A DNA stretch of 50,041 nt, taken from IMG/VR virus record IMGVR_UViG_3300037200_000048, positions 1-50,041 of that record; one strand, 5' to 3'. The notes below the pieces were generated by a model that worked only from the letters and a program-made list of their open reading frames with translations, was not told the DNA's origin and did no database searches. Below are positions 2,486 through 48,230 of this stretch, one piece after another. A program made the position numbers and the translations under genes. This DNA is from a virus. Taxonomy: Duplodnaviria; Caudoviricetes. The stretch's first letter is position 1. Each line of letters opens with the position of its first letter.

Positions 2486-3778
2486 ATGTCCAGTGAATTT
2501 ACACCCAAGAAGGCTCAGAAAGCCGCCGTCAAGCTGAAGATGGCGATACAGGGGCCAAGCGGTTCCGGCAAGACCGAGGGCGCGCTTGCGCTGGCGAAGA
2601 ACTTTATGCCGAACGCCAAGATTCTCCTGATCGACACCGAGAACTCTTCAGCTTCGCTCTACGCGGATCGCTACGACTTTGACACAATACCTCTGACCGC
2701 ACCGTACACGTCCCAGCGATACGTCAACGCCATGCGCGAAGCCGTGACAGGCGGTTACGACGTGCTGATCGTGGACTCTATCACCCAGCAGTGGGATGGC
2801 GAGGGTGGTATCCTCCGGCGGAAAGAAGAGAAGGATCGAAGCGGCGGAAATAGCTTCACCAATTGGGCATCGTTCACGCCGGAGCATACGAGGTTCATGG
2901 AGTTTATCAAGCAACTCCCCGTGCATACCATCGTAACGATGCGTTCCAAGCAGGCATACATCTTGGAGAAGAACGACAAAGGCAAGGAGGCACCGCGCAA
3001 GGTCGGACTTGACCCCATCCAGCGCGAGGGTACGGAGTACGAGTACACCATCGTATTCGAGGTCAACATGGCCCACCGCGCCACTACATCGAAGAATCGC
3101 ACCACGCTATTCCAAACCGACGAACTGATTGACTTGACCAGCCCAAAGGTCGCCGAAGAACTCAAGGCGTGGCTGGCAAACGGAATCCTGCTCCCGCGTC
3201 CGGCGGAGGATGTGGTGGGTCAGGTGGTAGACGAGGTTGAACGCCAGCAGGCCGTACATGCTCCCGCTACGATTGCAGAGGCGGTTCTGGCCAACGTGAA
3301 ACCGAAGGAGGAAGGATACGTTCCCCCCGAACTCGAATGGAGCTACCAGAAGACCACCGGCATCCTCATCTGCCGGATCACCGACGTCCAGAAGAAGACC
3401 AAAAAGGGCAGTAAGGATGAGTTCCTTGCCGTGAAAATCAATCAGCCCATCGAAGGCAAGTGGATCATCTTCTACTGGCACAAAACGCACATCGACCTGC
3501 TGCTGGCTTCGATAGGTAAGATAGTCAAACTGGAGACGGACGTAAAGGGAGGCTTCGCCAACATCAATGCCGTTCTGGAGATCGATGGAGAAAAAGTGGA
3601 GGAGTCCACTGAGGACTTCGAGATGCAGGCTAGGTGGTTGGCAGGAGTACTCGAATTCACCGAACCTGAACTGACCGAGCTTCACCAGCGATGGAATCGT
3701 GGGTCGTGGAAGGACACGCTGGCCGCACTGCAAGGCGAGAAGCTGCGCCGGGAATCCCTGGAAGGAGAGCCAGCATGA
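2486..3778 (+). CDS. AAA_24/Sak4-like P-loop ATPase (phage recombination protein) with long C-terminal extension
   Basis: Walker A GPSGSGKT, IDTE, Walker B VLIVDS, PIQREGTEYEY motif. Confidence 0.85.
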   Translation: MSSEFTPKKAQKAAVKLKMAIQGPSGSGKTEGALALAKNFMPNAKILLIDTENSSASLYADRYDFDTIPLTAPYTSQRYVNAMREAVTGGYDVLIVDSITQQWDGEGGILRRKEEKDRSGGNSFTNWASFTPEHTRFMEFIKQLPVHTIVTMRSKQAYILEKNDKGKEAPRKVGLDPIQREGTEYEYTIVFEVNMAHRATTSKNRTTLFQTDELIDLTSPKVAEELKAWLANGILLPRPAEDVVGQVVDEVERQQAVHAPATIAEAVLANVKPKEEGYVPPELEWSYQKTTGILICRITDVQKKTKKGSKDEFLAVKINQPIEGKWIIFYWHKTHIDLLLASIGKIVKLETDVKGGFANINAVLEIDGEKVEESTEDFEMQARWLAGVLEFTEPELTELHQRWNRGSWKDTLAALQGEKLRRESLEGEPA

Positions 3779-9213: not shown

Positions 9214-9789
9214 ATGTATGCTATGGCAATGACACCACTCCACGTAGAACGGTTTTGGACTAGAGTTCAGAAGCTCAACGGGTGTTGGCCTTGGACGGGT
9301 TCTTTAGACCACTACGGCTATGGTCGTTGCGCCATTGAAGGCAAGCACTACAAGGCGCATCGCCTGGCATTTTTGCTAACAACAGGGGATCTGCCGAATG
9401 GTAAAGAACTGCACCACACTTGCGAAAACAAGCGGTGCTGTAATCCTAATCATCTTGTCCCACTGACGCGCAGGGAGCATATCGCAGTAACCAAATATAC
9501 CCGCTCCACACACTGCAAGAATGGGCATCCTTTTGATGCAGAGAATACCTACGTTTGGCGAGGTATGAGGTGTTGCCGGACGTGCAATTTGATGTATACC
9601 CGTCTACGCCGAAAGGTTGATCTAGACCCTATTCGCTATCCGCAGGAGTGTTGGAAGTGCGGTCATAAATGGATTGCAAGACTTCCATCGCCGAAGCAAT
9701 GCGTCAACCTGAAATGCAAGGTGAGACAGAAACACGCCCAAGGCCCCAGTTACACCAAACCAGTTCCACCCAAGGACGTATCCCGATGA
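9214..9789 (+). CDS. HNH homing endonuclease with C-terminal Zn ribbons
   Basis: RFW..V....GCWPWTG...GYG...AHRLA...LHHTCENKRCCNPNHL; THCKNGHPF. Confidence 0.9.
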   Translation: MYAMAMTPLHVERFWTRVQKLNGCWPWTGSLDHYGYGRCAIEGKHYKAHRLAFLLTTGDLPNGKELHHTCENKRCCNPNHLVPLTRREHIAVTKYTRSTHCKNGHPFDAENTYVWRGMRCCRTCNLMYTRLRRKVDLDPIRYPQECWKCGHKWIARLPSPKQCVNLKCKVRQKHAQGPSYTKPVPPKDVSR

Positions 9790-13661: not shown

Positions 13662-15455
13662 CTAGTGTCCTATGGCTCCTCCGGCCATCACTCCGCCCGA
13701 AAAGGTACTGCCTCCGCCAAGCACAATTGTAAACGTCCCCTGCACCAGAGAGCTCGGCAGGCTTGCATAACTCACTCCAGCCATCGCATAGAGATTTTGC
13801 GTGAACGAAACCGCAATCGGCCCCGTATAGAGCGTGGCGTTTGGGCACCCGCCCTGATTGTCTGGCTGGGGAAGGAACGTCGGCAGAGTTGAGGACAGGA
13901 CGTAGCAGATGTAAGGCGTAGCCGATCCTGTGGCAGTCGTCGAGAGCGTGACCATCTGTGTACCCGAATAAGTTCCGGGGACGGGAGACATCGTGGGCGA
14001 GTTCGCGGGAGCTTGGCCGGATGGAGAACTGCCATCCCAGAACGGGTTGACTATATAGGCCACCGATCCAACCGCGCTATCGCTGAGACCCGTTCCGCCA
14101 GCGACAGCGTAAATGGGGCCGTTCGATGTCACGGGAATTGGGGCCGTGTACAGCGTCCCAGTCGCGCATCCGGTCGATCCGTTGGTTGCCGGAGCGCCTG
14201 TCGTGTTCCAACAGGTTGTCCCTCCGTGTGCAGCCGTAAGTTGAACCGTCTGGTAACCGTTGTAGTAGATTTCTCCGGGCTGGTTGAATATCGGGATTGA
14301 ACCTGTGCCTGTGATGTTGAGGGCCACGCTAGCTACCGTGCTATCCCCTGCTGCACCTGCGACCGCTGCGACCGCATAGACGTTGCGCCCAGACGGAATG
14401 GATATAGGCCCCGTATAGAGCGTCCCGTTCGGGCAACCTCCAATTCCATCGGAGAATACACCGCCGGTGAAGTTGTAGCAGATGTAGCTTCCACCCGTAG
14501 AGTCGGAGAGCGTGAGCGACTGGGTTCCTGAGTAAGTTCCAGATGCCAGAGAAAATGTGGGAGCAGCCGCTGGCGAAAGGCTGCTGTAAGTCCACGAGTT
14601 GATCCAGGTCGAGCCGGGAAGGTTGGCATTGTTGCCCTCGACGAGTCCTACGTATGCCGTAGTCCCGCTCACAACGGATGGGATATAGATTGGCCAAGTA
14701 TGAGTGAAGCAGTTTGCGCTTGGGCAGGAATAACCGAGAGTCTGGTCGTACATCTGCATCGTGATGTGCGAGCCGGTGTAGGTCAGCGTAACCACGTAGA
14801 CGTCGCCAGTGGTCGAGAACTGCACCGGAGAGGCCTGCTGGGGGACTGGGTAGGTGCTGATCCTGTTTGTGGCTACATACGGGAACGGAGAGCTTCCGCC
14901 CTGAGTGGGCAGACACGGCTCTATTGCGGATATGAACATCTGTACAGTCGAGTAGTTGTAGGTGTAGATCGCGGGGTAGTTGATCGAGTCCTGCATGTCC
15001 GCAACCTGCAATGCAAACACGTTATTCGGAGGGTACGAGGTTGGGGGAATCCCGTCCGCTTGGAAAAATCCACCTTCACACCCGGCCCCGCCGAGGAAGA
15101 TGTTTCCCTGGTAACCCGGACTGTTCGTCGTGTTGTTGAAGACGAAGGCCAGGTTCTGCCCGTTCGGGATAAAGGCAAAGGTGGACGTGAATGCAGTTAC
15201 GTTCACCGGGACGTAGTAGTTCAGCGCAACCGGCTGATGCCCGGCGTTGGGCGGCGACAACTGGACTTGAGGCTGGGTCGTCCCGATAGGGCTAGGAAAC
15301 CCATAGATGATAAGCTGCCCTGACCCTATGGCGGTCGCGTTGGTCACAGAGCAAGGGCCGCTCCCCGAAGCATTGAAGCCGGACGAGCAGTTGATTTGGG
15401 CGTGGAGTGCCGCAGCGCTCAGCAGAGCAAGGATGGAGAGTAAGCGCTTTATCAC
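13662..15455 (-). CDS. Signal-peptide protein with L-type (legume) lectin-like domain and three CHB_HEX_C/FN3-associated repeats
   Basis: GTGA-coupled start; MIKRLLSILALLSAAALHA-Q; VNVTAFTSTFAF...NLAFVF...TAYVG...INSWTY; repeats PTFS..SGTYSGTQ..TLS.....ICY...LYTGPI. Confidence 0.8.
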   Translation of the reverse strand: MIKRLLSILALLSAAALHAQINCSSGFNASGSGPCSVTNATAIGSGQLIIYGFPSPIGTTQPQVQLSPPNAGHQPVALNYYVPVNVTAFTSTFAFIPNGQNLAFVFNNTTNSPGYQGNIFLGGAGCEGGFFQADGIPPTSYPPNNVFALQVADMQDSINYPAIYTYNYSTVQMFISAIEPCLPTQGGSSPFPYVATNRISTYPVPQQASPVQFSTTGDVYVVTLTYTGSHITMQMYDQTLGYSCPSANCFTHTWPIYIPSVVSGTTAYVGLVEGNNANLPGSTWINSWTYSSLSPAAAPTFSLASGTYSGTQSLTLSDSTGGSYICYNFTGGVFSDGIGGCPNGTLYTGPISIPSGRNVYAVAAVAGAAGDSTVASVALNITGTGSIPIFNQPGEIYYNGYQTVQLTAAHGGTTCWNTTGAPATNGSTGCATGTLYTAPIPVTSNGPIYAVAGGTGLSDSAVGSVAYIVNPFWDGSSPSGQAPANSPTMSPVPGTYSGTQMVTLSTTATGSATPYICYVLSSTLPTFLPQPDNQGGCPNATLYTGPIAVSFTQNLYAMAGVSYASLPSSLVQGTFTIVLGGGSTFSGGVMAGGAIGH

Positions 15456-18400
15456 TTGCACCACCATGTAGCAGTCGCCAAGATGTAGTAGAAATTCATA
15501 ACTCCCGTCGCGGAGCATACATTGGCTATGTTCCCGCTGGTAACGGTCGTCCCGTTGACTCCTATAAGAGTGATCTCGCCTGTAAGCCCTGTAGTCGTGA
15601 ATGCAGAGGTAGAAGGCACTGTTATAGTTGCTAGAGCCGACATTGGGAGGGTTCCGGTGGTGTAGACGACCGGACTCAACGGGGTAAACGTCGTTTGCCC
15701 AGCCGTCACTGCTTGCGTGGTGGTGTTGTAGCCGTACACCCCGGATGAGTCGATATTTCCGACCTGTGACAGAGACCCTACGGCACTGTAAATAGCAATG
15801 ACGTTGTTGTTTCCCCCTAGCCCCATGTTGTAGGGAGAGTTTCCCATCGCAAGACTAGAAGCGACGATTCCCTGACCGAAGAACGATCCTGTATAGCCGC
15901 CCTGGAGCGCTTTGTTCCAATCGTTGTTGTCCGGGAAGTGCAATTCAGAGCCGTTCCATAACACGGCCAATGCGGGAGAGTTACCCGCCCCATTCGAGAG
16001 TTCAAAAGCAATCAGCGTTACCGGGGTGCCGCCGCTCTGCGTGTTCGTCGGCGTCCCATAAATTCCCCAAGTCAAGCCAGAGATGGTTGTGCCGCTAGCT
16101 CCCGTATAGGTCACGACCGATTCAGTGCCGCCAGCGTTTCCGCCGAAGAGAAGCGTCCCGACTGGAGGCAATCCAGTCGTGCCGCTCACGGTGCAACTGC
16201 TCGCGCCTCCGGTGCATGTGCCGCTTATGGTGATGGCTGTCGTATTTCCGTTTCCATAGTGGTTCTCGTTGCCCGCGAAATCGAACTGCGCCAGAGGAGA
16301 AGCGACATTGAAGCCAAGCGGCGATCCTGCCGTCGCCCCAGTGTGAATGATGTCGCTGGTCGCCGTTCCTGTCGTGCCGGGAGCCGCGTAGTAGATGCCT
16401 TGCCCAGTAGTTCCGGATGGCAGACCTCCACCACCCGCATAATTGGGTATATTTAGGACTCCTCCAGTATATGTAGCTGCACCGCTGCTTCCTGTTGTAG
16501 TCAGCGATAAAGGTGGGCCACCATTCTGTAAATCTATACCATTGGCCTTGAATACTGCATAATTTCCCGATGTACCTGCTGTAGGAACCAGCGCTCTAGG
16601 TGCTACCGCACCATTGTTATATGAATCTAATATCCTGTGAGTTGCGGAATCGCATATAGAATAATCGACTCCGGGCGCAGGCACACCAGCCGTGCTCGAT
16701 TCATCGCAGGCCCAACCGTGAGCGCCGGTTGGAAGAGCAGCGAGAGCGCCGGAAGAAGGGGTGCCGGCAATCAGGGTTGGCGAGCTGAAAGGCAACGTCG
16801 TGCCTGCCATGCCTCCAACTTCGGTAAAGCTCGAAGGCCCAATCAGCGCCCCTCCCAGAAACTTCGGCAGCGCGTTCGCCGCAGCGGTGTTCGACCCCAT
16901 CACGGTAGAGTCCGTCCCGCTGTTGTTCATGTGCCAGCTGTGGGTTACGGTCGCGGCGTACATCTGGTCGAAGCCCGATGATCCGCCGGCTGCCGTGCCT
17001 TCCGTGCCGGTCACAATGCCGCCGACGCCGCCTATCCCGGTCAAAGACAGCGACGTGCCCGATGCCGCACCCAGGGTTGGCGTCACGAAGGTCGGCGAGT
17101 TGGTCAGGGCGACGCTGCCCGTCCCGCTCGTCCCGTAGCTCGTCCCCCAGGCCGATCCAGTCGAGAGCGGTATCCCTGCTCCGGGGTAGGAGGCGCATCC
17201 TGCTCCAGTGCAAGTCCCTCCGATGTTCAAGTTGTGCAGGTTCAGCGTACCGAGACCGTTGCCTCCCGTTGTCGTGTCGAGACTGAATACACCCGGAGAT
17301 GGCTGAGTGATGCCAGCAGTCTGTCCGCCATTCTTCCAAGTGATCGCGCCTAAATAATTGAGGTTGACCGCACCCCCGGCATTTCCGAAGAACAGAGATC
17401 CGTTGAATCCACCGCCGCCGATTGTTATATTGCCCTGTGGAACACTAAAGTTTGAAGCGTATAAGTCCCACGACGGGGTTGTCCCAATCCCGTTGAGTTC
17501 AAGCTGAGTACCTCCGACGTTGAATATCTCTAAAGATGTCTGTCCGGGGAACGTATTTGTGAAGCAGATTACGCAAGTCAGCGGCGTGAAATTGCTTACC
17601 ATCAAATTCTGGTAGTACCCGAATGAGTCACCCAGACCTTGCTCATTGACTCCGAAGGCAAATAATGGAGGCAGCATATTCGGGATAGTCCCTGAGCAAG
17701 CCGTGTAGTAGCTGCAAGGATTGTCGTTCTCCACTTCAAGAGAGAAAGAATTGCCAGCAAACCCTGCGCCAGACGCTCTTATCTCTAGTGGCTGGAGTAT
17801 GTTTCCAGAACCTCCGGATGGAGTTTGCATCTGAGCCCCAATCAGCAGACCTGAAATATCGTTCTCAGGGAATCCGGGCGCTTCGAGTGTATGTCCTACC
17901 GTTCCCATCCCGGCGCACCCCGGACTGAGAACGGGGAGATAAGCGTTGGTTGCAAGCTCCTTCAGGATTTGGGCAGCGCAGAATGTTTGGAATCCAGCGT
18001 CGGACGATCCATCCGTCGTCGCAGCTTCAGAACCGGGCTGAGGGATGGAAATTGCCCCATTCGTGCCTCTAAGGGGAACGGAGTAGATCAAATACCCGCC
18101 AATCGAGCCAGGAGATAGATAATTAGTTCGATGACCGAGATGCGTGGATGGGCCGTTCAAGGAAATTCCCTGACAGCTTCCTTGAAAGACCGCGATGTTA
18201 GTGTTCGCGTTGTAAAGCGGCAGAGTCAAGGTCTGAGTGCCGGCAGACCCGCTCACGGCGCTCAAAACACTTTCTTCAGAATAGTTAGAGCCAATGACAC
18301 ACACAGTCGATCCAGACGTGAGCGATCCCACCCCGCCTTGCAACGTGAAGGTCTGAGATACAGGAGCATCAGGTGTAGTGGTCTGCACAAGGTTTACGCC

Positions 18401-29645: not shown

Positions 29646-30065
29646 CTAATTCATGCTGACTTCAAGCTCCATCGTGGCTGCCTGCGTCCCGCCCGCCAAA
29701 GTTACCACTGCCGATACCGAGGTAATCGAGAGATCGGTGTTGAACTCCTTCGTGTAGTCCAATCCAGTACCCGCCGCCGTTGTCCCGATAGACTCGATTT
29801 GGAGGGTGTTGGTTCCGTCCGTCACCGTAAGTAGGGCGGCGAGAGTGGTCGCTCCATTGACTGAAGTGGCCCGCAAGCGAATCTTTCCCCGGCTAGGCGC
29901 TGGGCCTCCGTTTGCGTTGAACGGGATGCCGTTGGTCGAAGGCGTGGTGGTCGTGGCCGCGATGGTGAGCGTCCCCGTCGCGGTAAGCGCGGAGACGGCA
30001 TACCCGTAGTTTGAGCCAGAGCCGTACCCCGGCATTACCTGTGCTACCGAGTTGGCAAACGACAT
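29646..30065 (-). CDS. Putative capsid decoration/cement protein
   Basis: 139-aa T/A/G-rich beta protein directly after MCP; AAGGAG RBS. Confidence 0.55.
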   Translation of the reverse strand: MSFANSVAQVMPGYGSGSNYGYAVSALTATGTLTIAATTTTPSTNGIPFNANGGPAPSRGKIRLRATSVNGATTLAALLTVTDGTNTLQIESIGTTAAGTGLDYTKEFNTDLSITSVSAVVTLAGGTQAATMELEVSMN

Positions 30066-30075
30066 AGCAATCTCC

Positions 30076-31062
30076 TTAGTTCGGAAGGCCCGTGATGGTG
30101 ATATTCATGCGAGGCGAGATGCACGACAAGTTCCACGTCAGGTACATCGTCGAGACCAACACGCGCTGGTTGCTCGGCTTCACGAACGGATCGACGTTGA
30201 AGTAGTCGGCCTCGTGGAAGACGGGGAAGATGTACTTCGAGTTCAGGAACATCGCAATCCCGGTTGGGCAGAAGTAGTCCGGCACCGTGACGGCATTGTT
30301 GAACAGGAAGTGGTTGCGGAAGCCAACCTGCAACGCCTCATCGTCCTGCATTCCTTGACCGAAGCGGACTTCGGTGGTGAAGTTTGCCTTGAACGCGGCG
30401 TAATTCAGCCGGTTCATCACGCAGAGGTCAGGCTCGTCGTACCCCCAGGTCACGTTCTGGTAGGCAGGCTCGAAGATTGCCGGAGTGACCGCTCCGCCCG
30501 AAGCGTAGTTTGCAGCGGGCAGCCAGAAGGCGTTGGCGGCAGTCGAGCGGTTGATGCCGGCGATGGTGTTGGTGGTGGTCTGCACCCACGACACAAGATC
30601 GTCGATGTCGAGCGAAGTGTTCTGCGGAGCGGTGTGCCAGATGGCGCGGGAGAGCTTCTGGAGGAACGACGCAGAGGCCGTCTGGTACTTCGCCTTGATG
30701 AGGTCGAGGTTCCCAGCCCCGCCCCGGTTGAGAATGATGTCCGTTACCGGAATCACGATGGGCTGGCGGTAGGGCTTCCACTGCTGGTTCGCAGGCTGAA
30801 TCGAGTCAACCACGGAGGTATCGAGCAGTTGGTCGCCATAGTAGGCACCGCCCGGAAGCTCCTCTTGGTAGATTTCGGGGAAGACAAGCTCGCCTGCACC
30901 GAACTTCTTACCTTCGCGGGTCAGTGCCCAGAACACCGGAGAGGGCTTGAAGACGTTATCGCCGAGTACCGGGACGATGTACTTCTGGCTGATTGCGTTG
31001 ACCGTGTTGGAAAGTTGTACCGGGGGAGACGCAAGCCCCAGACCAACGACTGAATTTGCCAT
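30076..31062 (-). CDS. Major capsid protein
   Basis: DNVFKPSP...G.G.....P...Y.G...L.T...A...WK, IAGINRS...FW, EPDL, MFLNSKY pattern; strongly biased codons; AAGGAG RBS. Confidence 0.88.
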   Translation of the reverse strand: MANSVVGLGLASPPVQLSNTVNAISQKYIVPVLGDNVFKPSPVFWALTREGKKFGAGELVFPEIYQEELPGGAYYGDQLLDTSVVDSIQPANQQWKPYRQPIVIPVTDIILNRGGAGNLDLIKAKYQTASASFLQKLSRAIWHTAPQNTSLDIDDLVSWVQTTTNTIAGINRSTAANAFWLPAANYASGGAVTPAIFEPAYQNVTWGYDEPDLCVMNRLNYAAFKANFTTEVRFGQGMQDDEALQVGFRNHFLFNNAVTVPDYFCPTGIAMFLNSKYIFPVFHEADYFNVDPFVKPSNQRVLVSTMYLTWNLSCISPRMNITITGLPN

Positions 31063-31073
31063 GCTCTATCTCC

Positions 31074-31892
31074 TTAGTTCGCCCACTGCTTCCCAACTGT
31101 GTTCCAAAGTTCGCTGTCTTGGCCCGCCGCTGCAATTGCCTCATCGAGCGAGAGCGTCTTGCCTTTGTCGTCCGTCCCTTTGAATCCGGTGTCGAGGATA
31201 CGCGGCCCGTGGACGCCGGGGCGCTGCATGGCTGCAAGAGCCTCACGATCCTTGGTGAGTTCCGTCTTCTTCGCTGTCACTTCGGCAAGCTCGGCTTCTT
31301 TACGGGCGTCCCACGTCAAGCGGTCAACCGCAGCGTGGATATCGAGCCGTCCATGCTCATCCAGCAGTTTCCGATCGGTCGCAAACTTGATAGCCTGCTC
31401 CAGTTTCACCTGGTTGCGAATGCCCTCTGGGAGTGCCGCCTGTTCACGGGCAAAGACAGAGTTGTAGTTGTCGTCCAGGTAGCCCTTCATGGCCTGCTGG
31501 GTGACGGTACGAACCTGAGCCACCTGCCCTTTGACTTCCTCCACGACGGCTTGTATCTTGGCCATCTCTGCGCGGACTTCTTTTACCATCGGGCCGAAGA
31601 GAGGATCGTTCTCGTCCATGCCGGTCGTCTCGCGGACATGATCGGCAACCTGCCTCCGGCTGGGAACCACAACTTCCATCTTGTCGTCCAGCAGACCGGC
31701 GGTACGGAGCTTGGTCACGCGCTCCAATACTCCCTGCTCGGCAAGTTCCAGTTGCTGCTGACGGGCCAATAGAGCCTGCCGCTCCGAAGTGGCCAACTGC
31801 CGCATCTCTCCAACTGTGGCCGACGAACCATCGGGCAATGCGATAACCAGATCGTCGGCGTAGGTTCCTGTCGTCAGAATGTCTTTCAGCAT
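31074..31892 (-). CDS. Putative scaffolding protein
   Basis: Helical, charged, directly upstream of MCP; AAGGAG RBS. Confidence 0.65.
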   Translation of the reverse strand: MLKDILTTGTYADDLVIALPDGSSATVGEMRQLATSERQALLARQQQLELAEQGVLERVTKLRTAGLLDDKMEVVVPSRRQVADHVRETTGMDENDPLFGPMVKEVRAEMAKIQAVVEEVKGQVAQVRTVTQQAMKGYLDDNYNSVFAREQAALPEGIRNQVKLEQAIKFATDRKLLDEHGRLDIHAAVDRLTWDARKEAELAEVTAKKTELTKDREALAAMQRPGVHGPRILDTGFKGTDDKGKTLSLDEAIAAAGQDSELWNTVGKQWAN

Positions 31893-32315
31893 TTATGCTG
31901 CTCCTTGGGCGAACTGCTGTAGGTTTTGCTGTCCCTGTGGCGGCTGGCCCGCGCCGTTGGCGATGGGGGCCGCTACCGTGGATGCAACCTCAGCCGCCTT
32001 TTGGCAGGCTTTGATTGCCGCATCGCAATACTTCTGGGCCTGCGCTACCGGGGTCGCTACGTCGGGCATGGCAAACGCCGCGCGGGGGTAAATTGCGACC
32101 AATTGGCTCTTGATCTGATTGAGAATCTTCATCATCGAATTGGGGTCGGCACCCTGCAATTCGGCAAGCTGCGTCTGAATCTGCTGTCCCGCTTCGTCTC
32201 CCCCCGGAGGCTGACCCTGACCCGGTTGACCTCCGCCCGGAGGCTGACCCTGCGGAGCCAGTTTCGATAGAAGCTGACGCGCCATGATCCCCGCAATTGG
32301 ACTGCCTGCGCTCAT
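31893..32315 (-). CDS. Q/G/P-rich head-module protein
   Basis: ATGA-coupled; low-complexity termini. Confidence 0.65.
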   Translation of the reverse strand: MSAGSPIAGIMARQLLSKLAPQGQPPGGGQPGQGQPPGGDEAGQQIQTQLAELQGADPNSMMKILNQIKSQLVAIYPRAAFAMPDVATPVAQAQKYCDAAIKACQKAAEVASTVAAPIANGAGQPPQGQQNLQQFAQGAA

Positions 32316-32413
32316 CGCGCCCCTTTGCGCTGCGGCGTGTTGCGGAAAGAGTTCTTGGGAACCTTCGTATGCGAGGACTTCAAACCCTTCGACTTCAGAC
32401 CCTTCATCTTCAT
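32312..32413 (-). CDS. Basic micropeptide MKMKGLKSKGLKSSHTKVPKNSFRNTPQRKGAR (33 aa)
   Basis: Translated by hand; ATGA overlaps at both ends. Confidence 0.7.
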   Translation of the reverse strand: MKMKGLKSKGLKSSHTKVPKNSFRNTPQRKGAR

Positions 32414-32577
32414 TCGCGGCCCGCTTTCTTCGAGTTGCCCGGAATTAGCCTCAGCGGATCGGTTGGCATGGCTACGGGGTTGTTACGCACATCGGGGCCA
32501 GGCTCGTTGGAAGGACGGCCAACGGTGAGGGGACTCTTAAGTATTTTGTCGTCAAATGCCTTGCCGCCAAATTCCAT
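32410..32577 (-). CDS. Small P-rich protein MEFGGKAFDDKILKSPLTVGRPSNEPG...KKAGRE (55 aa)
   Basis: Translated by hand; GGAGA RBS; coupled to next gene. Confidence 0.65.
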   Translation of the reverse strand: MEFGGKAFDDKILKSPLTVGRPSNEPGPDVRNNPVAMPTDPLRLIPGNSKKAGRE

Positions 32578-32598
32578 GATCTTCTCCAGAGTGGTACA

Positions 32599-32624
32599 CC
32601 GGGAGTCCCGTCAGGAACCCCCGG
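32599..32624 (-). other. 11-bp RNA hairpin between micropeptide genes
   Basis: CCGGGGGTTCC-TGAC-GGGACTCCCGG. Confidence 0.5.
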
Positions 32625-32647
32625 CTAGGGAGTGCAAGAGGGGAGTC

Positions 32648-32698
32648 CTAACGGCGAGTGCTGAGTTTGGGCTTGCGCCGTCCACCGCGTCTCGGCAT
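32648..32698 (-). CDS. Arg-rich micropeptide MPRRGGRRKPKLSTRR (16 aa)
   Basis: AAAGAGGT RBS directly before ATG. Confidence 0.55.
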   Translation of the reverse strand: MPRRGGRRKPKLSTRR

Positions 32699-32786
32699 AA
32701 GAACCTCTTTCGCTCTGCTGGTAACGCCAGCAAATCGTCTAAGAGCGGCGGGCGCGAAAGCCAGCAACAGCACCGCTCGTTTTCAG

Positions 32787-32891
32787 CTATTTGGAACTGC
32801 CTCGTTGAGAGGAGTTCTTCTTAGCCAGAGCGCGCGCGTCGGAGAGAAATTTCTTCGGATTTTTGAAGTCCTTGATTATCTTCTTCGGCAC
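32787..32891 (-). CDS. Lys-rich micropeptide MPKKIIKDFKNPKKFLSDARALAKKNSSQRGSSK (34 aa)
   Basis: GAGGAG RBS 5 nt before GTG. Confidence 0.6.
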   Translation of the reverse strand: MPKKIIKDFKNPKKFLSDARALAKKNSSQRGSSK

Positions 32892-32905
32892 ACTTGCTCC
32901 TCAAA

Positions 32906-32965
32906 CTACTTCCGCTTGCTGTGCTTCTTGCCGTGACGCTTGTGCTTTACGCGGGTCTCGAACAT
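32906..32965 (-). CDS. K/R/H-rich micropeptide MFETRVKHKRHGKKHSKRK (19 aa)
   Basis: AGGAGG RBS; ATG 1 nt after upstream stop. Confidence 0.65.
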   Translation of the reverse strand: MFETRVKHKRHGKKHSKRK

Positions 32966-32966
32966 A

Positions 32967-33224
32967 TTAGAAGCCCTCCTCTTGCCTCTTCAGGATTTCG
33001 TCCATCGGAAGCGGATTGCGAGCGTCGCCGTAAATATGGATCAGAACCTCAGACTGACGGGCGATGTAGGCCAGATAGCCTTTGTCCGTCAGGCACTCAG
33101 GAAGTTCCCTTGTGCTCTTGTGATCGTCGATAGCCGGGGCCAAAATGCCATTGACGGCAACCTGAACCTGAATATCTCCGTTCCCAAGGTCTGTGTAGCG
33201 AACCAACTCTACGGCAGCCTGCAT
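32967..33224 (-). CDS. Hypothetical protein, first gene of capsid operon (probably leaderless)
   Basis: ATG 7 nt after TACGCT -10. Confidence 0.6.
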   Translation of the reverse strand: MQAAVELVRYTDLGNGDIQVQVAVNGILAPAIDDHKSTRELPECLTDKGYLAYIARQSEVLIHIYGDARNPLPMDEILKRQEEGF

Positions 33225-33231
33225 ATTGGAA

Positions 33232-33259
33232 AGCGTATAGCCTTTTAGGGTTGCGGCAA
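33232..33259 (-). promoter_or_regulatory. Candidate promoter TTGCCG-16-TACGCT for the capsid operon
   Basis: Intergenic; spacing gives a start site at ATG 33224. Confidence 0.45.
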
Positions 33260-33283
33260 GAGGGTTGGTTCGCCGCTGACATC

Positions 33284-33514
33284 CTACAGAAGGGAAGATG
33301 GCACGAGGAAATACAGACGGCAACGGTCTCCACTTGACCCGCCGCGCCTGCCTCTTCCCATTTTTCTCCCCTCGAAACGCAATGACTCGTCCATCAGAAC
33401 AAGGATGCCAAAGTTGGAGAAATGCCCTGTCTTTGCGTATTTCTGCGCCCAACGGCGAGTCCTTCCCATGATCAAGGCGAACTCTTCCGAAGTGATCCAG
33501 ACATGATCGTTCAT
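33284..33514 (-). CDS. Small winged-HTH/excisionase-like DNA-binding protein
   Basis: WITSEEFALIMGRTRRWAQKYAKTG; ATGA overlap with portal stop. Confidence 0.55.
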   Translation of the reverse strand: MNDHVWITSEEFALIMGRTRRWAQKYAKTGHFSNFGILVLMDESLRFEGRKMGRGRRGGSSGDRCRLYFLVPSSLL

Positions 33515-35235
33515 CGCTTCTTGCCCTTCATGATTCCCGCCAAAGCCTGTAACTGAAGCTGCTCTTTCTGCTCCTCCGCAATCTTCTCCGCGTGAGGGAT
33601 TCCGAGCATTTGCAGCCCGCGCTCGGTGTTGAGGACTCCCGTCTTCATCAGTTCCGGGACCATGCGGCGCAACGCCAGCTCGCTCAACGGCTGGATTGAA
33701 TCTTCGTCCAGCATGAGGTCGTAGTTGTGCGGGTCGAGGATGCCTTCCCACTGCACTACATCGGTAGACTTGTCTCCCCGGAACGGCATGGAGAAGCGCC
33801 CCATATAGCGCCCCATCGTGTAGAACATGCAGGTTGCGAGTTGGGAAATAGTGAACGATTGAAGCCTTCCCGCAAGCTGCAACATCCCTGAAGATTGCAG
33901 GATGGACGACTCGAACAGAGAGGTCGAAACATTGCCCTGCCCAGGGTTTCCCTGCTTGGCTTCCGTCTGGCCTTGAAGCCGCTGCTGGATTTTTAGCAGA
34001 TCGGCTGGCAGTTGGTATGCCTGCGAAGAGAGAGCGGGTGCCGTCCGGCATTCGGGGATTCTTGAATTTGGATTGATCGACTGGACTTCTCCAGGCATCC
34101 CGCCGAACGCTTCTACGTCGATTCCCGTGCTTTGGTCGATGAACCACGTTCCATTGTTGAGCCGGACGGCATTTTCGTACAGTTGCGTGTATAGTTTTTC
34201 TCCCATAGTTTGCAGAGACTCGGAAAAGCGCGTAACTGGGATGCCCCAAGGCCCGTAGAGCGGCGGCAGCGCCCACATCGGGAACAGAGGAAAGAATGGC
34301 GATGGAATGTCTGTCCGCTTCGGGTAAGGGTTCGACCCATCCGACAGGATAAAGCCTTCGCACTCTACCAGGTATCTTCCGTTGGGGTACTTCCACTTGA
34401 ACTCAGGATCGGTCAGCGCCCCATCTGGGATATTCTTTTCATCCACGATTTCGCGCGTGTAGTCCTTGCAAAAAACGTGCCGGACGCGAAGCCGGGTATC
34501 CGAGTTTGTCCTCCCAAGCTGGGAAGAAATACCCGGCATACCCGGCATTGAAGTCATGGGGCCGTTCGGCATCTGGAAACCGTACCCCGATCCGGTCTGC
34601 TGAAGAGACGCCGTGGACGACCCCGCTCCGACAATCTTGATGCTCTTCGAGGTGTGAGGCCATCGCTGGCGAATCTCCTCGACATGCATCCAGTCCTCAA
34701 AATACAGGTAGCTGGGATCGAACTCGTAATCGGTCGTAGGGTCGAACCCCACCGTCCGAGGGTCGCGCGACTTGACCCATAGACCGCCTTTGCCATTTCT
34801 CAGGTCGGGCGAGTAGCAGAGTTGCAGAAATCCCGTTCCAGTGTAACGCGAGGCCGTCGTAGCGAAGAGAGAGTGATAATTGACCCGCGCCTGCTGCCAC
34901 TGGGCCTGCAACGCTTTCTCGCGCCCCTCCGCTCTCTCCCCATCGTTGAAGATGTAAACCTGCGGCGAGATGTCGGAGATGCGGTTTGAGTCTTCGAGGA
35001 TGATCTTTTGCAGTTCGGGAATATTGATAGCCGGGCGGAAAGACGGCACTTCCCCGGTCGGCCCCTTGAGGCTGTAAAGCGCCTCCGCAGCAGCAAAAGC
35101 GTTCTCTCCCAACGCCTGCTTACGGGCGCTGTCCGACTGCTCTACCCAGTTCTCGATATGCTTGCATCGAGGGTCTCGGTACTGGTCGGGATCGGACTTT
35201 TTTCTGTCCGAGCGAATTGTGACGATGTTGGCGAT
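33511..35235 (-). CDS. Portal protein; probable ATC start at 35235 (ORF track starts at TTG 35112)
   Basis: GTGF.....SPD, RDPRTV.FDP, KYPNGR, DGSNPY, WGIP....S.Q motifs; frame open to 35238. Confidence 0.88.
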   Translation of the reverse strand: MANIVTIRSDRKKSDPDQYRDPRCKHIENWVEQSDSARKQALGENAFAAAEALYSLKGPTGEVPSFRPAINIPELQKIILEDSNRISDISPQVYIFNDGERAEGREKALQAQWQQARVNYHSLFATTASRYTGTGFLQLCYSPDLRNGKGGLWVKSRDPRTVGFDPTTDYEFDPSYLYFEDWMHVEEIRQRWPHTSKSIKIVGAGSSTASLQQTGSGYGFQMPNGPMTSMPGMPGISSQLGRTNSDTRLRVRHVFCKDYTREIVDEKNIPDGALTDPEFKWKYPNGRYLVECEGFILSDGSNPYPKRTDIPSPFFPLFPMWALPPLYGPWGIPVTRFSESLQTMGEKLYTQLYENAVRLNNGTWFIDQSTGIDVEAFGGMPGEVQSINPNSRIPECRTAPALSSQAYQLPADLLKIQQRLQGQTEAKQGNPGQGNVSTSLFESSILQSSGMLQLAGRLQSFTISQLATCMFYTMGRYMGRFSMPFRGDKSTDVVQWEGILDPHNYDLMLDEDSIQPLSELALRRMVPELMKTGVLNTERGLQMLGIPHAEKIAEEQKEQLQLQALAGIMKGKKR

Positions 35236-35238
35236 GGC

Positions 35239-35418
35239 CTAGTCCCTGTATCCATCGCGGAACGTGCTTACCCGCTTCGACTTCACTTTTCCTTTGCCCG
35301 ACTTGCCTTTCGGCTTGGCATGGCGTCCGTGGGCATGGCGTCGCGGGTTCTCCATCGCCATTGCCTTCGATTCGTCGTCCGGTGCGGTTGTCTGATACTT
35401 CGCTCTGGCTGTACCCAT
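35239..35418 (-). CDS. Basic 59-aa protein (RRHAHGRHAKPKGKSGKGKVKSKR), in frame with portal
   Basis: GGAGGG RBS; its TAG is in frame with the portal ORF. Confidence 0.65.
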   Translation of the reverse strand: MGTARAKYQTTAPDDESKAMAMENPRRHAHGRHAKPKGKSGKGKVKSKRVSTFRDGYRD

Positions 35419-35514
35419 GATAAGTCCCTCCAAACGCTATAGAAACGCGCGGATTCGCTTATGTCAACCTGCATTTGTATGTTAGATAAGAGTTGGCAAT
35501 AAGTTCGCAATAAG

Positions 35515-36015
35515 TTATGCAGACTGTAGAGCGTCTCCGCCGCGCAACCATTCGGCCAGCAGGGTAGCTGGCGTCTTCCCGCTCTCGCTCGACCGCTTGC
35601 GAAACTCTTCCAACTTCATCAGCAATTCGCTCAACTCTTTCATGCTCATCACTCCACCGAGGATGAGGTACTGGGCATTGTTCGCCAAGTCGCGCTGGTA
35701 GACCTCGTAGGCCTGAGACTGGCTTATCTTGCGGTTCTCGGCAAACTCTTTACCGATGGATTCGAGTATTCCTTTGGCGTAGTCGCGGTCTTGCGGTGTG
35801 ACGTTAGGAGGCAATTCGCGGTCTACTGCTGACGCCACGGGAAGATCGGCCCTGCGTTCCTCTGCACTCTTTCCTCGACGCTTGTACGGTCGGCGAGTCT
35901 TTCTTCCCTTTCCCTCTCCAATGACAATAACTTGGCCTCCGTTGGACGGACGCTGCGGTGAGTTGATGGAGGAGAAGTCGAAACCGTTTCCGAGAAAACT
36001 TTCGTCAGTAGCCAT
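35515..36015 (-). CDS. Hypothetical protein (possible packaging-associated)
   Basis: GGAGG RBS; basic patch then helical domain. Confidence 0.65.
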   Translation of the reverse strand: MATDESFLGNGFDFSSINSPQRPSNGGQVIVIGEGKGRKTRRPYKRRGKSAEERRADLPVASAVDRELPPNVTPQDRDYAKGILESIGKEFAENRKISQSQAYEVYQRDLANNAQYLILGGVMSMKELSELLMKLEEFRKRSSESGKTPATLLAEWLRGGDALQSA

Positions 36016-47217: not shown

Positions 47218-47373
47218 CTATTGGGCAAGCGCGGCCTGCAATTCAGCCCGGTCTTTCGCTAGGTCCAGAATGGCCTTGGCCAATATCTCGTCTCCATTGC
47301 CGAATCGCCACGGCTCAGCGAGCACATACTCAGCGACTTCGACGACATCGCGCACTTCTTTGTCGGTCATCAT
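47218..47373 (-). CDS. Small hypothetical protein
   Basis: ATGA-coupled to PAPS reductase. Confidence 0.5.
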   Translation of the reverse strand: MMTDKEVRDVVEVAEYVLAEPWRFGNGDEILAKAILDLAKDRAELQAALAQ

Positions 47374-48230
47374 TCGCACAAACCATACTTCGACTCGCAG
47401 GACTCGCGCTCGTGAAATATCGGGAACAGTTCTTTCCGACCGCCCCTGGCCGTCTTCGACCATGCCACCACTTGATCGATCGTATTGTTCGCTTTCAGCC
47501 CTGGGACCATGGGCGGGAAATAGGTGTAGCCGGTTTCCGTTTCCCAATCGCGAATTTTATCGATCATGTCTGGTCTGCGCAGGACCCAGTTCAGAATGTC
47601 TTCCTTCCCGCTGTTCACGCACGGCGCACACCCGACACGGCCAAATCCCATCAGATACAGAGGATTGATCTTCTCGCCACGCTCGCGGGCACCAGCAAAG
47701 CATTCCACTTTCGCAAGGCCAGCGATGATATGGTTCACCCAGCAATCGAAGTAGTCATCCCATTCGCGGTCTGGATAATCTTTGCGTGCGTGGCTCTCGT
47801 CGCGGCGGACGCCCGTGTACCGCGCGTAGTCCTCGCCTTCGTACTTTCCGCCGACTCCGAACTCACGTTGCATCCATCGGCGTTGCGGGGCCAGCTTCAG
47901 AATCGACGTGCAGAACTGGACCTTCCTGCTCGGAGGCCGCTTCTTGATCCGGATCATGTCCCTGAACGTCAGGACGGCATTTCCGTCCAAGCCCTTATGG
48001 TCCTCAGCAAAGCCTTCGGTAATCCAGATATCAGATACGATAGCTTCAACGATTACAACAGGATGGACCGTAGCCGAGTAATCGGCTATGAACTCAACGG
48101 TAAGCGGGTCTTCGTTTCCACCCGCCTGCGAGTTCATCAGAATAGTGTCATCGTGGCCGTACAGCGCGATTACCCGCGCGGCGGCTTCCTGCGAATCGAT
48201 CCCGCCAGAGAATCCTACAATGTGCTTCAC
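47370..48230 (-). CDS. Phosphoadenosine phosphosulfate (PAPS) reductase family protein
   Basis: PP-loop FSGGIDS, FCTSILKLAP, GVRRDES..R, NPLYLMGFGRVGCAPC, C.S.YGLCE. Confidence 0.9.
   Translation of the reverse strand: MKHIVGFSGGIDSQEAAARVIALYGHDDTILMNSQAGGNEDPLTVEFIADYSATVHPVVIVEAIVSDIWITEGFAEDHKGLDGNAVLTFRDMIRIKKRPPSRKVQFCTSILKLAPQRRWMQREFGVGGKYEGEDYARYTGVRRDESHARKDYPDREWDDYFDCWVNHIIAGLAKVECFAGARERGEKINPLYLMGFGRVGCAPCVNSGKEDILNWVLRRPDMIDKIRDWETETGYTYFPPMVPGLKANNTIDQVVAWSKTARGGRKELFPIFHERESCESKYGLCE

Follow-up and report, generated by a model that had tools for sequence, protein, structure and literature searches.

The interval between the portal gene and the major capsid gene of this phage contains a conserved late-operon cassette of micro-genes, which belongs to a clade of uncultivated peat and permafrost phages and is not described for tailed phages. 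It lies in the head-morphogenesis module of a 50-kb record (50,041 nucleotides, the whole of which is called the window here) with a tailed-phage large terminase, a portal and a major head protein, and all genes of the interval are on the minus strand. Gene callers skip ORFs so small, and gaps in phage genomes are therefore usually taken as non-coding; here a 650-bp gap amounts to five genes, s1 to s5, and even those of 16 and 19 codons have comparative evidence equal to that of ordinary genes. The first-pass annotation of the window had proposed that the gap hides an array of basic micropeptide genes that are expressed together with the capsid genes, and this proposal is supported by our analysis; the coordinates and translations of the five minus-strand ORFs, together with the counts of Lys, Arg and His residues, were all reproduced. 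Its description of the gap as five tiny ORFs is correct for all five, but the gap also holds an HTH_17-type gene and an 85-aa gene, both of which were unlisted.

On the minus strand, the locus begins with p59 (35239–35418), a gene of 59 aa just 5′ of the portal which is indeed basic as earlier claimed, with a net charge of +10 and a pI of 10.6. The portal gene (33511–35112; phrog_156 portal, E = 2.6e-5) serves as the upstream anchor, and the unlisted 76-aa helix-turn-helix gene (33284–33514; Pfam HTH_17) is ATGA-coupled to its stop codon. After p85, an acidic gene of 85 aa (32967–33224; pI 4.7), comes s1 (32906–32965), which starts with ATG and encodes a 19-aa Lys/Arg/His peptide of net charge +8; 14 nt further on is s2 (32787–32891), with a GTG start and a basic 34-aa product of net charge +9. 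The space between s2 and s3 is taken up by an RNA hairpin, P1 (32743–32778), with an 8-bp covarying stem around a conserved loop, and by the ribosome-binding region of s3 (32699–32713), for which an anti-SD:SD pairing with the P1 loop is predicted. The s3 gene itself (32648–32698) encodes a 16-aa arginine-rich peptide with an RGGRR core and a net charge of +8. It is followed by a 16-nt motif, identical in the closest relatives, and an 11-bp hairpin (together 32599–32643), and then by s4 (32410–32577), whose 55-aa proline-rich product contains eight prolines. The last member, s5 (32312–32413), gives a basic 33-aa peptide of net charge +11 that is devoid of acidic residues. Downstream are p140 (31893–32315), a conserved head-module gene of 140 aa whose start overlaps the s5 stop codon, the adjoining acidic scaffold-like gene p272 (31074–31892; pI 5.2, net charge −8), and the major capsid protein gene as the downstream anchor (30076–31062; phrog_9953 major head protein, E = 5e-21).

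As claimed earlier, the micro-genes have either their own ribosome-binding site or an ATGA coupling: SD sites precede s1, s2, s3 and s4, and ATGA overlaps occur at the s4/s5 and s5/p140 junctions. Given these overlaps and the abutment of p140 and p272, the micro-genes are translationally coupled to p140 and the scaffold-like gene. Hairpins had been said to separate the ORFs; they do so in the s2–s3 and s3–s4 spacers, but not at the other junctions, where the spacing is 14 nt (s1–s2) or the genes overlap (s4/s5). Known RNA families and tRNAs were not found across the window, and a promoter and terminator scan of 31500–35600 yielded nothing above shuffles.

The genes s1 to s5 are genuine and not chance ORFs. 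The comparison set comprised 63 distinct portal-to-scaffold regions, namely the window and 62 related viral contigs, the relatives having been recruited by a capsid query of the viral contig collection, in which the portal as a single query had no match. The ordered array was found in 61 of the 63 regions, and order, start codon, SD and charge are all conserved across related regions. The expectation that basic small ORFs at the syntenic locus would keep ribosome-binding site and charge despite sequence drift was thus clearly borne out. An arginine/lysine micro-ORF cluster with 103 members from 59 regions has an SD in all 103 and an ATG start in 100, whereas both are mostly absent from the clusters of alternative-frame ORFs. 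The pooled dN/dS in the annotated frames of all peptide families is 0.12–0.39, as against 0.9–2.5 in the two shifted sense frames of the micro-ORFs and 0.36–0.54 in the best (mirror) antisense frame, which is always above the sense frame. Since the sense-frame values lie below those of the alternative frames, the amino-acid sequences of all families are under purifying selection. Indels relative to the closest relatives keep the reading frame. Over both strands of the 50-kb window, only seven ORFs of 10–70 aa combine an SD with a K+R content of 30% or more and a D+E content of 10% or less, and s1, s2 and s3 are three of these seven, all inside 320 nt.

The individual genes conform to this pattern. 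The SD of s1 is the strongest among the 17 late genes scored, and in the closest relatives an ORF of 16 aa begins at this ATG, the difference being an in-frame 9-nt indel. ORFs of the s1 type, with lengths of 11–42 aa (median 15), are present in 49 regions, and their pooled dN/dS is 0.38; four other frames give 0.91–1.22 and the mirror antisense frame 0.47. HMM matches to s2 were obtained in 43 of the 63 regions (SD in 42 and ATG in 42 of the 43; dN/dS 0.39). The strict pattern of the RGG-type peptide encoded by s3 matches 42 of the 63 regions, all with an SD (dN/dS 0.36); synonymous changes and a 3-nt indel that keeps the frame set s3 apart from its closest relatives, and the peptide sequence is near-invariant over wide divergence. 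For s5, the identity in L002–L004 is 82%, with synonymous changes, and elsewhere the slot is occupied by a different basic ORF of 30–62 aa, belonging to family C10 in 15 regions and to family C15 in five; the families of this slot have dN/dS values of 0.12–0.35. HMMER reached only one, two and four regions for s1, s3 and s5, respectively, and pattern, position and clustering were used for these three, whose shortness and compositional bias make HMMER unsuitable. A 175-aa ORF on the plus strand (32297–32824) was ruled out as a real gene, given that the antisense frames always have a higher dN/dS than the sense frames, that the micro-ORFs occupy different frames, and that long antisense stop-free runs are common at this locus (median 134 aa in 59 regions), as would be expected from Lys and Arg codons.

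Peptides of at least 20 aa gave no match in PHROGs, and eleven of them matched no NCBIfam model at E values up to 10; a Pfam search with the peptides of this length and p59 returned just two weak, unrelated matches, both to s2. No cultured close relative was found. In the gene maps of the distant cultured relatives Mx8 and BUCT555, annotated genes fill the portal-to-capsid interval and, to judge from these maps alone, both phages do without such a cassette.

A typical set consists of four polycationic peptides of 11–62 aa, whose net charges add up to about +35 (median), plus s4; the basic peptides of the window have 16 to 34 residues. Per-family median net charges of the polycationic peptides range from +7 to +14. 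The s1 and s3 types are 50–54% K+R with only 3–4% hydrophobic residues, whereas the other families are 31–35% K+R, and the s2, C5 and s5-like families contain 14–21% hydrophobic residues. The RGG-type arginine peptide has a length of 13–20 aa. The occupants of the s1 and s5 slots drift in sequence and length but retain their composition and charge, and the sum of about +35 holds even with a fourth member from a different family. The array was originally described as one of basic micropeptides, which is true of s1, s2, s3 and s5 but not of the 55-aa s4, with a net charge of +2 in the window and a family median of 0.

It follows from this composition that s4 is another kind of protein than the basic peptides. 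It was found in 61 of the 63 regions with 50–77% identity to the window protein and nine invariant residues, and in conservation it ranks second in the module, behind the capsid gene (dN/dS 0.19). Among 1.84 billion proteins, 29 clusters of s4 were recovered, 28 of them spanning 46–80 aa and one 221 aa. The protein is predicted to be disordered, the model having a pLDDT of 60.9 and no secondary structure. Searches gave no usable match in the ESM Atlas, PilP alone at E = 0.08 among PDB sequences, and no match in the phage collection, which also lacked one to the portal. When s4 was co-folded with the capsid protein, the score was 0.00, which we counted neither way. The invariant core of s4 includes LTVG, four residues shared with an encapsulin cargo-loading peptide. 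In PMC11190991, the minimal cargo-loading peptide LTVGSLRR of M. xanthus is described as binding the inner face of an HK97-fold encapsulin shell. Cargo-loading motifs of this kind are C-terminal, whereas the LTVG of s4 lies in the N-terminal third and comprises four residues only. We treat this possible likeness as a lead rather than a finding; s4 may be a capsid-bound partner.

The P1 hairpin shows strong covariation. Its stem is 7–10 bp long in 30 of 33 distinct sequences, which have 18 different 5′ arms, and the observed mean stem length was matched by none of 1000 arm shuffles. The distance from P1 to the RGG-type peptide downstream is 29–106 nt, and the two occur together in 46 regions; 12 regions have neither, five have the motif only and none the peptide only. 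All 18 independently retrieved loci with an RGG-type peptide also have the P1 stem. The loop is invariant, and a 7-nt stretch of it is complementary to the s3 ribosome-binding site. RNAalifold on 32 s2–s3 spacers recovered ten nearly invariant loop:SD pairs, and 28 of the 32 have duplex energies of −12.1 to −15.1 kcal/mol; the pairing rests on conservation and energy, a double change being present in only one of the ten pairs. P1 is thus predicted from the alignment to be an RNA structure that occludes the ribosome-binding site of s3, and the product of s3 would repress its own synthesis. The RNA of 32570–32800 is more stably folded than all 200 shuffles (z = −3.0). This operator-like element before s3 had been missed in the first reading. 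The s3–s4 hairpin retains its pairing in L002–L004 with differing arm sequences, support that is limited to the window and its closest relatives, and RNAalifold gave no consensus structure of the s3–s4 spacer among nine more distant sequences. The 16-nt motif after s3 was considered as a repeated promoter-like site and rejected, as it occurs once in the window; allowing up to three mismatches, 48 of 100 shuffles yield at least one match.

How can these features be explained together? Our best explanation, which we hold tentatively and at somewhat less than even confidence, is that the peptides are nucleic-acid counter-ions for packaging or for the virion core, and that an autogenous RNA operator titrates them. 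The peptides would bind phage DNA during packaging, would remain in the capsid with the DNA, or both, in a role akin to that of polyamines, protamines, adenovirus mu and VII, or Microviridae protein J. Synthesis of the RGG-type peptide would be gated by the RNA operator through pairing of the P1 loop with the s3 ribosome-binding site, and surplus free peptide would plausibly switch off its own translation. Proteins whose synthesis is matched to the amount of a nucleic-acid ligand, such as ribosomal proteins and T4 gp32, typically control their own translation. DNA-condensing core peptides, as suggested at first, appear compatible with the position of the array between portal and scaffold/capsid genes, its strong SDs and the polyelectrolyte character of its products; a set charge held near +35 across differing fourth members also fits counter-ions. 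Several points count against this explanation. Tailed phages fill a preformed shell with DNA, so internal proteins must enter beforehand, and peptides of 11–20 aa are too short for a known capsid-targeting signal. By our own estimate, neutralising the whole 50-kb genome would require an implausible mass of peptide, and only partial neutralisation is realistic. The gene maps of Mx8 and BUCT555, without such a cassette, are a further objection, and a specific RNA as ligand would account for the strict conservation of the RGG-type peptide and its tight link to the hairpin no less well than bulk DNA. That a clade of tailed phages has protamine-like counter-ions of its own, translated separately and down to 11 residues long, packaged with the genome and in one case supplied via a peptide-sensing RNA switch, in which a 13–20-aa arginine peptide would bind the hairpin before its own gene, we regard as doubtful.

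The specific-ligand argument leads to an alternative that we consider unlikely, in which the arginine-rich-motif peptides, above all the RGG type, bind late head-transcript RNA and are not virion components. P1 and the neighbouring hairpins would be the ligands, and the translation, processing or stability of head mRNA would be controlled. Hairpin-binding arginine-rich peptides are well known from lambda N/boxB and Tat/TAR, and the covarying P1 that always accompanies the RGG-type peptide, also in the independently retrieved loci, the complementarity of its loop to the SD site, the excess folding stability and the coverage of the array by RNA-library contigs all point in this direction. However, a conserved RNA element accompanies just one peptide family out of four or five, charge rather than sequence persists in the s1 and s5 slots, unlike specific RNA recognition, and 13–20 aa are too short for the host-factor-binding parts of known antiterminators; nor would a regulator require the operon's strongest ribosome-binding site. 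Rather more unlikely are assembly cofactors, that is, cationic peptides and s4 binding acidic procapsid partners (p272, the portal or the capsid interior) instead of DNA, which would nucleate or stabilise assembly or aid the exit of the scaffold. The genes do lie between portal and scaffold/capsid with translational coupling to p140 and p272, the neighbours are acidic (net charges of −8 for p272, −5 for the capsid protein and −6 for p85), and s4, disordered alone yet highly conserved to a degree that tracks the capsid protein, suggests a conserved binding partner; but near-pure K/R/H peptides are unusual as specific protein ligands, and the partners except the capsid protein diverge strongly while the RGG-type peptide is nearly unchanged.

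The remaining readings have little probability. A cationic charge would suit peptides directed against the envelope, nucleoid or defence of the host, be they membrane-active, antimicrobial or lysis helpers; a phage-encoded cationic lysis peptide exists, and the s2, C5 and s5-like families are hydrophobic enough to form amphipathic segments. The s1 and s3 types cannot be amphipathic, the genes are in the head module and not in a lysis cassette, and no signal sequences or membrane segments were evident by eye in the translations, all of which makes this reading very unlikely; the earlier suggestion of membrane-active cationic peptides is a poor fit for these two shortest families in particular. 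Marginally less probable again is that the micro-ORFs are regulatory upstream ORFs with functionless peptides, whose translation itself sets head-protein ratios via relay, coupling and mRNA unfolding. Tight packing, overlaps, structured spacers and the predicted SD sequestration before s3, which suggests that translation is tuned here, speak for it, but not the purifying selection at the amino-acid level in all families, the near-invariance of the RGG type or the charge kept across non-homologous slot occupants. The smallest bacterial ribosomal proteins are similar in size and composition to the peptides, and some phages encode ribosomal proteins, yet ribosome-associated micro-proteins that alter host ribosomes late in infection are the least probable reading of all, in view of the NCBIfam and Pfam results given above and of a head-module location without known precedent for such genes.

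For the counter-ion explanation, the nearest functional analogue among phages is protein J of the Microviridae (phiX174 type), a very small, highly basic peptide whose gene adjoins that of the capsid protein in the morphogenesis cluster and which is packaged with the genome as a counter-ion. Both cases share a small basic gene near capsid or scaffold genes; protein J, however, is the product of a single gene in an ssDNA phage with another capsid lineage and packaging route, whereas the genes here form an array, and no family match or sequence relationship to protein J was detected in PHROGs, NCBIfam or Pfam for the peptides of at least 20 aa. With adenovirus mu and VII, baculovirus P6.9 and the protamines the peptides share richness in arginine, very small size, several members per virus and late expression with capsid genes; a high Arg/Lys content in a small protein co-expressed with the capsid is exactly what the s1 and s3 types exhibit. 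In contrast, mu, VII and P6.9 belong to eukaryotic viruses and the adenovirus peptides are cleaved from precursors, whereas each window peptide is translated from a start codon and ribosome-binding site of its own, and the same searches revealed no protamine-, mu- or VII-type homology. T4 IPI–III and the internal or ejection proteins of podoviruses, such as T7 gp6.7, are encoded in head modules and reside inside the capsid with the DNA, some being small and basic. The known examples are about 8–20 kDa or larger, with targeting sequences or core complexes, and form no array of 11–34-aa peptides; no similarity to proteins of these types was found.

As for the RNA element, the N proteins of lambda and P22 with boxB, and HIV Tat–TAR, likewise feature a short arginine-rich segment and a conserved hairpin with an invariant loop, and such a motif beside such a hairpin is present here. 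Proteins of the lambda N type act on transcription and have additional domains that engage host factors; the whole s3 product is 13–20 aa and lacks the regions that contact host transcription factors, and the pairing of the P1 loop with the product's own ribosome-binding site points to translational control, unlike lambda N. The mRNA pseudoknot of ribosomal protein S15 and the T4 gene 32 mRNA are autogenous translational operators with a comparable hairpin and loop-to-downstream pairing over the ribosome-binding site, although the regulated product here would be a peptide of at most 20 aa from a phage head operon.

Were the peptides DNA counter-ions, built-in polycations as in adenoviruses, baculoviruses and microviruses would extend to tailed phages, with a bearing on packaging physics, capsid pressure and particle survival in cation-poor acidic peat water. 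A protamine-like set combined with an RNA switch, if true, would amount to a novel type of virion component in tailed phages, and s3 would be among the smallest known autoregulated genes. In any case, hairpin and peptide form a compact, testable candidate for peptide–RNA autoregulation, and the peptides are short enough for synthesis, which makes the main hypotheses testable without culturing the phage.

Contigs of 151–606 nt from four peat or permafrost RNA libraries cover 32439–33213; these libraries may contain DNA, the runs were picked because they hold this stretch, and the uncovered parts of 30000–35200 are not interpretable. Contig ends at 33041–33046 were rejected as RNA ends, for X5 is polymorphic at 33042 and 33045, the very place where they lie.

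Among the neighbouring genes, p140 gave a sub-threshold DUF6244 match only in the family search and p272 no family match, and p272 is probably the scaffold in view of its position between portal and capsid and its acidity. No family match to a prohead protease was obtained among the head-module genes scanned. The capsid protein, which is assumed to have the HK97 fold, is 77–91% identical across 51 aligned relatives and is the product of the module's most conserved gene, compared with identities of about 45% for the portal and about 30% for the scaffold. The helix-turn-helix gene is present in all 63 regions, and Pfam HTH_17 matches 29 of 34 members (best E = 1.7e-6); a model of the protein has a pLDDT of 75.6, with no match at E ≤ 0.001 in a fold search. 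The acidic p85 was found in 24 of the 63 regions, and the 161-aa ORF in the ORF track is an over-extension of it, since relatives begin at an internal Met. The portal gene probably starts further upstream, at about 35235, because homologous N-terminal codons are open 5′ of the listed TTG start. Upstream of it, p59 has no Pfam match, and tblastn matches with 43–55% identity were obtained in 22 loci, duplicates included.

The interval between portal and capsid in the head module contains five tiny ORFs on the minus strand, namely s1 (32906–32965, 19 aa), s2 (32787–32891, 34 aa), s3 (32648–32698, 16 aa), s4 (32410–32577, 55 aa, proline-rich) and s5 (32312–32413, 33 aa), and their positions and translations in the first-pass annotation were all verified. 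The ribosome-binding sites and ATGA coupling proposed there were also found. A Shine-Dalgarno (SD) site lies ahead of s1, s3 and s4, which start with ATG, and of s2, which starts with GTG, while the s4 stop overlaps the s5 start, and the s5 stop the start of the following 140-aa gene (31893–32315), in ATGA. The description of the peptides as basic holds for s1 (net charge +8), s2 (+9), s3 (+8) and s5 (+11) and fails for s4, which has a net charge of +2 and eight prolines. Just seven ORFs of 10–70 codons on both strands of the whole window combine an SD site with a K+R content of 30% or more and a D+E content of 10% or less, and s1, s2 and s3 are three of these, clustered inside 320 nt. A 16-nt motif directly past the s3 stop (32628–32643, minus strand) is present in a single copy in the window and is identical in the related loci L002–L004, with different flanks.

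The apparent gap conceals two more minus-strand genes missed by the ORF track. An HTH_17-type gene of 76 aa (33284–33514), ATGA-coupled to the portal stop, lies under spurious longer ORFs, and an acidic 85-aa gene (within 32967–33452) is over-extended to 161 aa. Upstream of the listed TTG start of the portal gene, about 40 open codons (35113–35241, minus strand) correspond by homology to the N-terminus of the portal in relatives and reach back to the stop of a 59-aa gene (35239–35418); the start used in relatives aligns with an ATC 3 nt past this stop. Given these open homologous codons and the ATC at the aligned start, the portal probably uses a rare start codon or re-initiation, and would have about 574 aa, compared with the 533 listed.

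Related viral-contig loci were collected with a capsid-protein query (71 loci, best-segment identity 58–94%) and a terminase query (16 additional loci, on contigs partly shared with the capsid set). The window and the 79 of these 87 loci with both the portal end and the start of the 140-aa gene gave 63 distinct regions after 17 exact duplicates were removed; portal identity to the window ranges widely among them, from 86% down to 34%. Conserved basic small ORFs do recur at the syntenic locus, as the first-pass annotation had suggested checking, in a fixed order and with near-universal SD and ATG. Per-region maps read portal, HTH gene, 85-aa gene, s1-type, s2, s3-type, C5, s4, s5-slot, 140-aa gene, scaffold-like gene (31074–31892 in the window) and capsid, with the 85-aa gene, s2, C5 and the s5-slot member missing from some regions. 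C5 is a basic micropeptide family of 22–51 aa that 34 regions (for example L013:5957–6055 and L016:5956–6054) carry between the s3-type gene and s4, with SD and ATG nearly universal; it is absent from the window, which, like about 24 other regions, has a basic peptide after s4 instead.

Iterated profile searches recovered the HTH gene in all 63 regions, s4 in 61, s2 in 43 and the 85-aa gene in 24. Owing to their shortness and compositional bias, with which HMMER cannot cope, s1, s3 and s5 were detected in only 1, 2 and 4 regions; by a simple pattern, an s3-type ORF is found in 42 of the 63 regions, each time with an SD site. When all plus-strand ORFs of the regions of at least 10 codons were clustered, s4 formed a cluster from 61 regions (SD in 61/61), and an arginine/lysine micro-ORF cluster (n=103, median length 18 aa, K+R 53%) came from 59 regions, with SD in 103/103 and ATG in 100/103. 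SD and ATG are nearly universal in the s2 cluster (43 regions) and in three s5-slot families (15, 5 and 4 regions) as well, whereas clusters in alternative frames mostly miss both. Two regions with no match to the s4 profile, L069 and L071, have by eye divergent s4-like ORFs, and L069 two arginine micro-ORFs as well. In the closest relatives s1 is a 16-codon ORF with the same ATG and an in-frame 9-nt indel, missed by tblastn, and s3 shows a 3-nt indel that keeps the frame as well as arginine and glycine codons changed synonymously. In one distant relative, L066, a 143-aa ORF resembling by eye a LAGLIDADG-type homing endonuclease lies inside the array, between the arginine micro-ORFs and s4 (region coordinates 1024–1455).

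The s1 and s3 types have 50–54% K+R and only 3–4% hydrophobic residues, and the s2, C5 and s5-slot families 31–35% K+R. In the s1 and s5 slots charge is kept while sequence and length vary; the s3 type is near-invariant across most of the clade. Cationic peptides occur in 61 regions, of which 38 have four, 9 three, 11 two and 3 one, and the summed net charge (median +35, range +7 to +39) is similar when the fourth member comes from another family. The s4 family has a median net charge of zero, 9 invariant and 11 near-invariant alignment positions, and a predicted structure without secondary structure (pLDDT 60.9). Its profile matched 29 clusters among 1.84 billion proteins, all but one of them stand-alone proteins of 46–80 aa. 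The exception, P0027 (221 aa), has four tandem repeats weakly matching the s4 core, a resemblance that low complexity may have produced by chance.

Pooled over sequence pairs, dN/dS in the annotated frame comes to 0.19 for s4, 0.39 for s2, 0.30 for C5, 0.36 for the s3 type, 0.38 for the s1 type, 0.35 for the s5-slot family C10 and 0.12 for s5, against 0.91–2.46 in the two shifted sense frames; because the pairs are phylogenetically non-independent, this frame contrast is the control and no P value is given. The antisense frame sharing wobble positions gives 0.36–0.54, above the sense frame in every case, as expected of a mirror effect. Stop-free antisense runs opposite the array could mislead gene callers; in the window (32297–32824, plus strand) they span 168 aa, and in relatives a median of 134 and a maximum of 261 aa, which would be expected from Lys/Arg codon composition. 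The 175-aa plus-strand ORF 32297–32824 was rejected as the gene, since antisense dN/dS always exceeds that of the sense frame and such runs are common in relatives.

The spacer between s2 and s3 carries a hairpin (32743–32778) whose 7–10-bp stem occurs in 30 of 33 distinct sequences. Pairing is kept in all 18 distinct 5′-arm sequences, and when the 3′ arms of 18 representatives were shuffled, mean stem length was 4.4 against 7.2 observed, a value attained in none of 1000 trials. The loop is nearly invariant, with a heptamer complementary to the first bases of the s3 SD site. In an RNAalifold consensus of 32 spacers, loop and SD are joined by 10 near-invariant pairs, with a double change in one pair only; for the 28 of these 32 spacers that the search pattern matched, duplex energy lies between −12.1 and −15.1 kcal/mol. 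Hairpin and loop-to-SD pairing would form a pseudoknot-like switch across the s3 ribosome-binding site. Window RNA 32570–32800 folds better than 200/200 shuffles (z = −3.0). Motif and s3-type peptide of 13–20 aa (RGG-type) are both present in 46 of the 63 regions and both absent from 12; the motif occurs alone in 5, although in 4 of these the strict pattern overlooked an arginine peptide lying directly downstream, and the peptide never occurs alone. The link is independent of s2. A viral collection was scanned with the exact 15-mer, and 80 of at least 120 matches were examined: 18 have an arginine micro-ORF 29–106 nt downstream, all 18 with the stem, and 62 have none, including L146, which has the family stem and whose locus is cut by the contig end.

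Metatranscriptome contigs from four libraries, in runs selected through this same stretch and possibly containing DNA, cover 32439–33044 (606 nt), 32547–33041 (495 nt of a 517-nt contig), 32670–33210 (541 nt) and, as two contigs of 151 nt, sites between 32648 and 32921; RNA ends, strand and level are not derivable from them. Strain variants occur at 33042, 33045 and 33083–33174, and several contigs end at 33041–33046; these ends look more like breaks made by the assembly at polymorphic positions than like true ends of RNA.

Taken at the level of sequence, these data establish the locus as a late-operon cassette that is conserved and translated and that encodes polycationic micropeptides together with a partner protein, itself conserved and disordered. 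For one member, s3, translation is under predicted control by RNA structure. Composition, charge kept without sequence, strong ribosome-binding sites and head-module position lead us to the tentative view that the peptides may act as counter-ions to nucleic acid in packaging and/or the virion core. For the first-pass annotation, the observation is confirmed and extended, and the interpretation partly supported. Autogenous control is typical of proteins produced in proportion to their nucleic-acid ligand, and a candidate RNA operator controlling s3 translation would agree with a counter-ion role. The operator favours just as much a role of s3 as an RNA regulator, which we consider rather unlikely. 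That the peptides are assembly cofactors is doubtful, that they are directed at the host improbable, that the micro-ORFs are function-less upstream ORFs a little more so, and an association with ribosomes is the least probable.

The peptides of 20 aa or more have no family match in PHROGs or NCBIfam and only weak, unrelated ones in Pfam. The closest functional analogues are Microviridae protein J, adenovirus mu/VII and T4 internal proteins; lambda N with boxB is the closest for a peptide plus hairpin, and autogenous operators for the control. Full-text searches on small tailed-phage proteins of basic, protamine-like or internal type listed nothing comparable, and a term search of a review of phage small proteins gave no match for 'arginine', 'capsid' or 'basic'. 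We rate the kind as known, that of viral polycationic core or nucleic-acid-binding peptides, and the lineage and format as apparently undescribed previously.

The window is a complete IMG/VR virus record of 50,041 bp with terminal repeats. Family searches identify the large terminase (phrog_2), portal (phrog_156) and major capsid protein (phrog_9953) of the minus-strand head module; outside it, Pfam matches are almost absent from the genome. By capsid, the closest cultured phages (25–26% identity) are Myxococcus Mx8/Mx9, Stenotrophomonas BUCT555 and a Bradyrhizobium phage, in which searches of the phage collection with the portal and s4 found no counterpart; on the gene maps, the portal-to-capsid interval of Mx8 and of BUCT555 is filled with annotated genes. 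The public runs in which the stretch occurs carry peat or permafrost metagenome labels. An acidobacterial host is weakly hinted at by one contig of 5.8 kb that was placed in the bin of an uncultured Terracidiphilus genome and has a capsid gene of 82% identity. The few recognisable genes elsewhere include an HNH endonuclease (9214–9789, plus strand), an AAA_24 ATPase (2486–3778, plus strand) and a PAPS-reductase-like domain (47370–48230, minus strand); the product of 13662–15518 (minus strand), a protein of 618 aa containing chitobiase/Fn3-associated domains, likely serves in the tail or in receptor binding.
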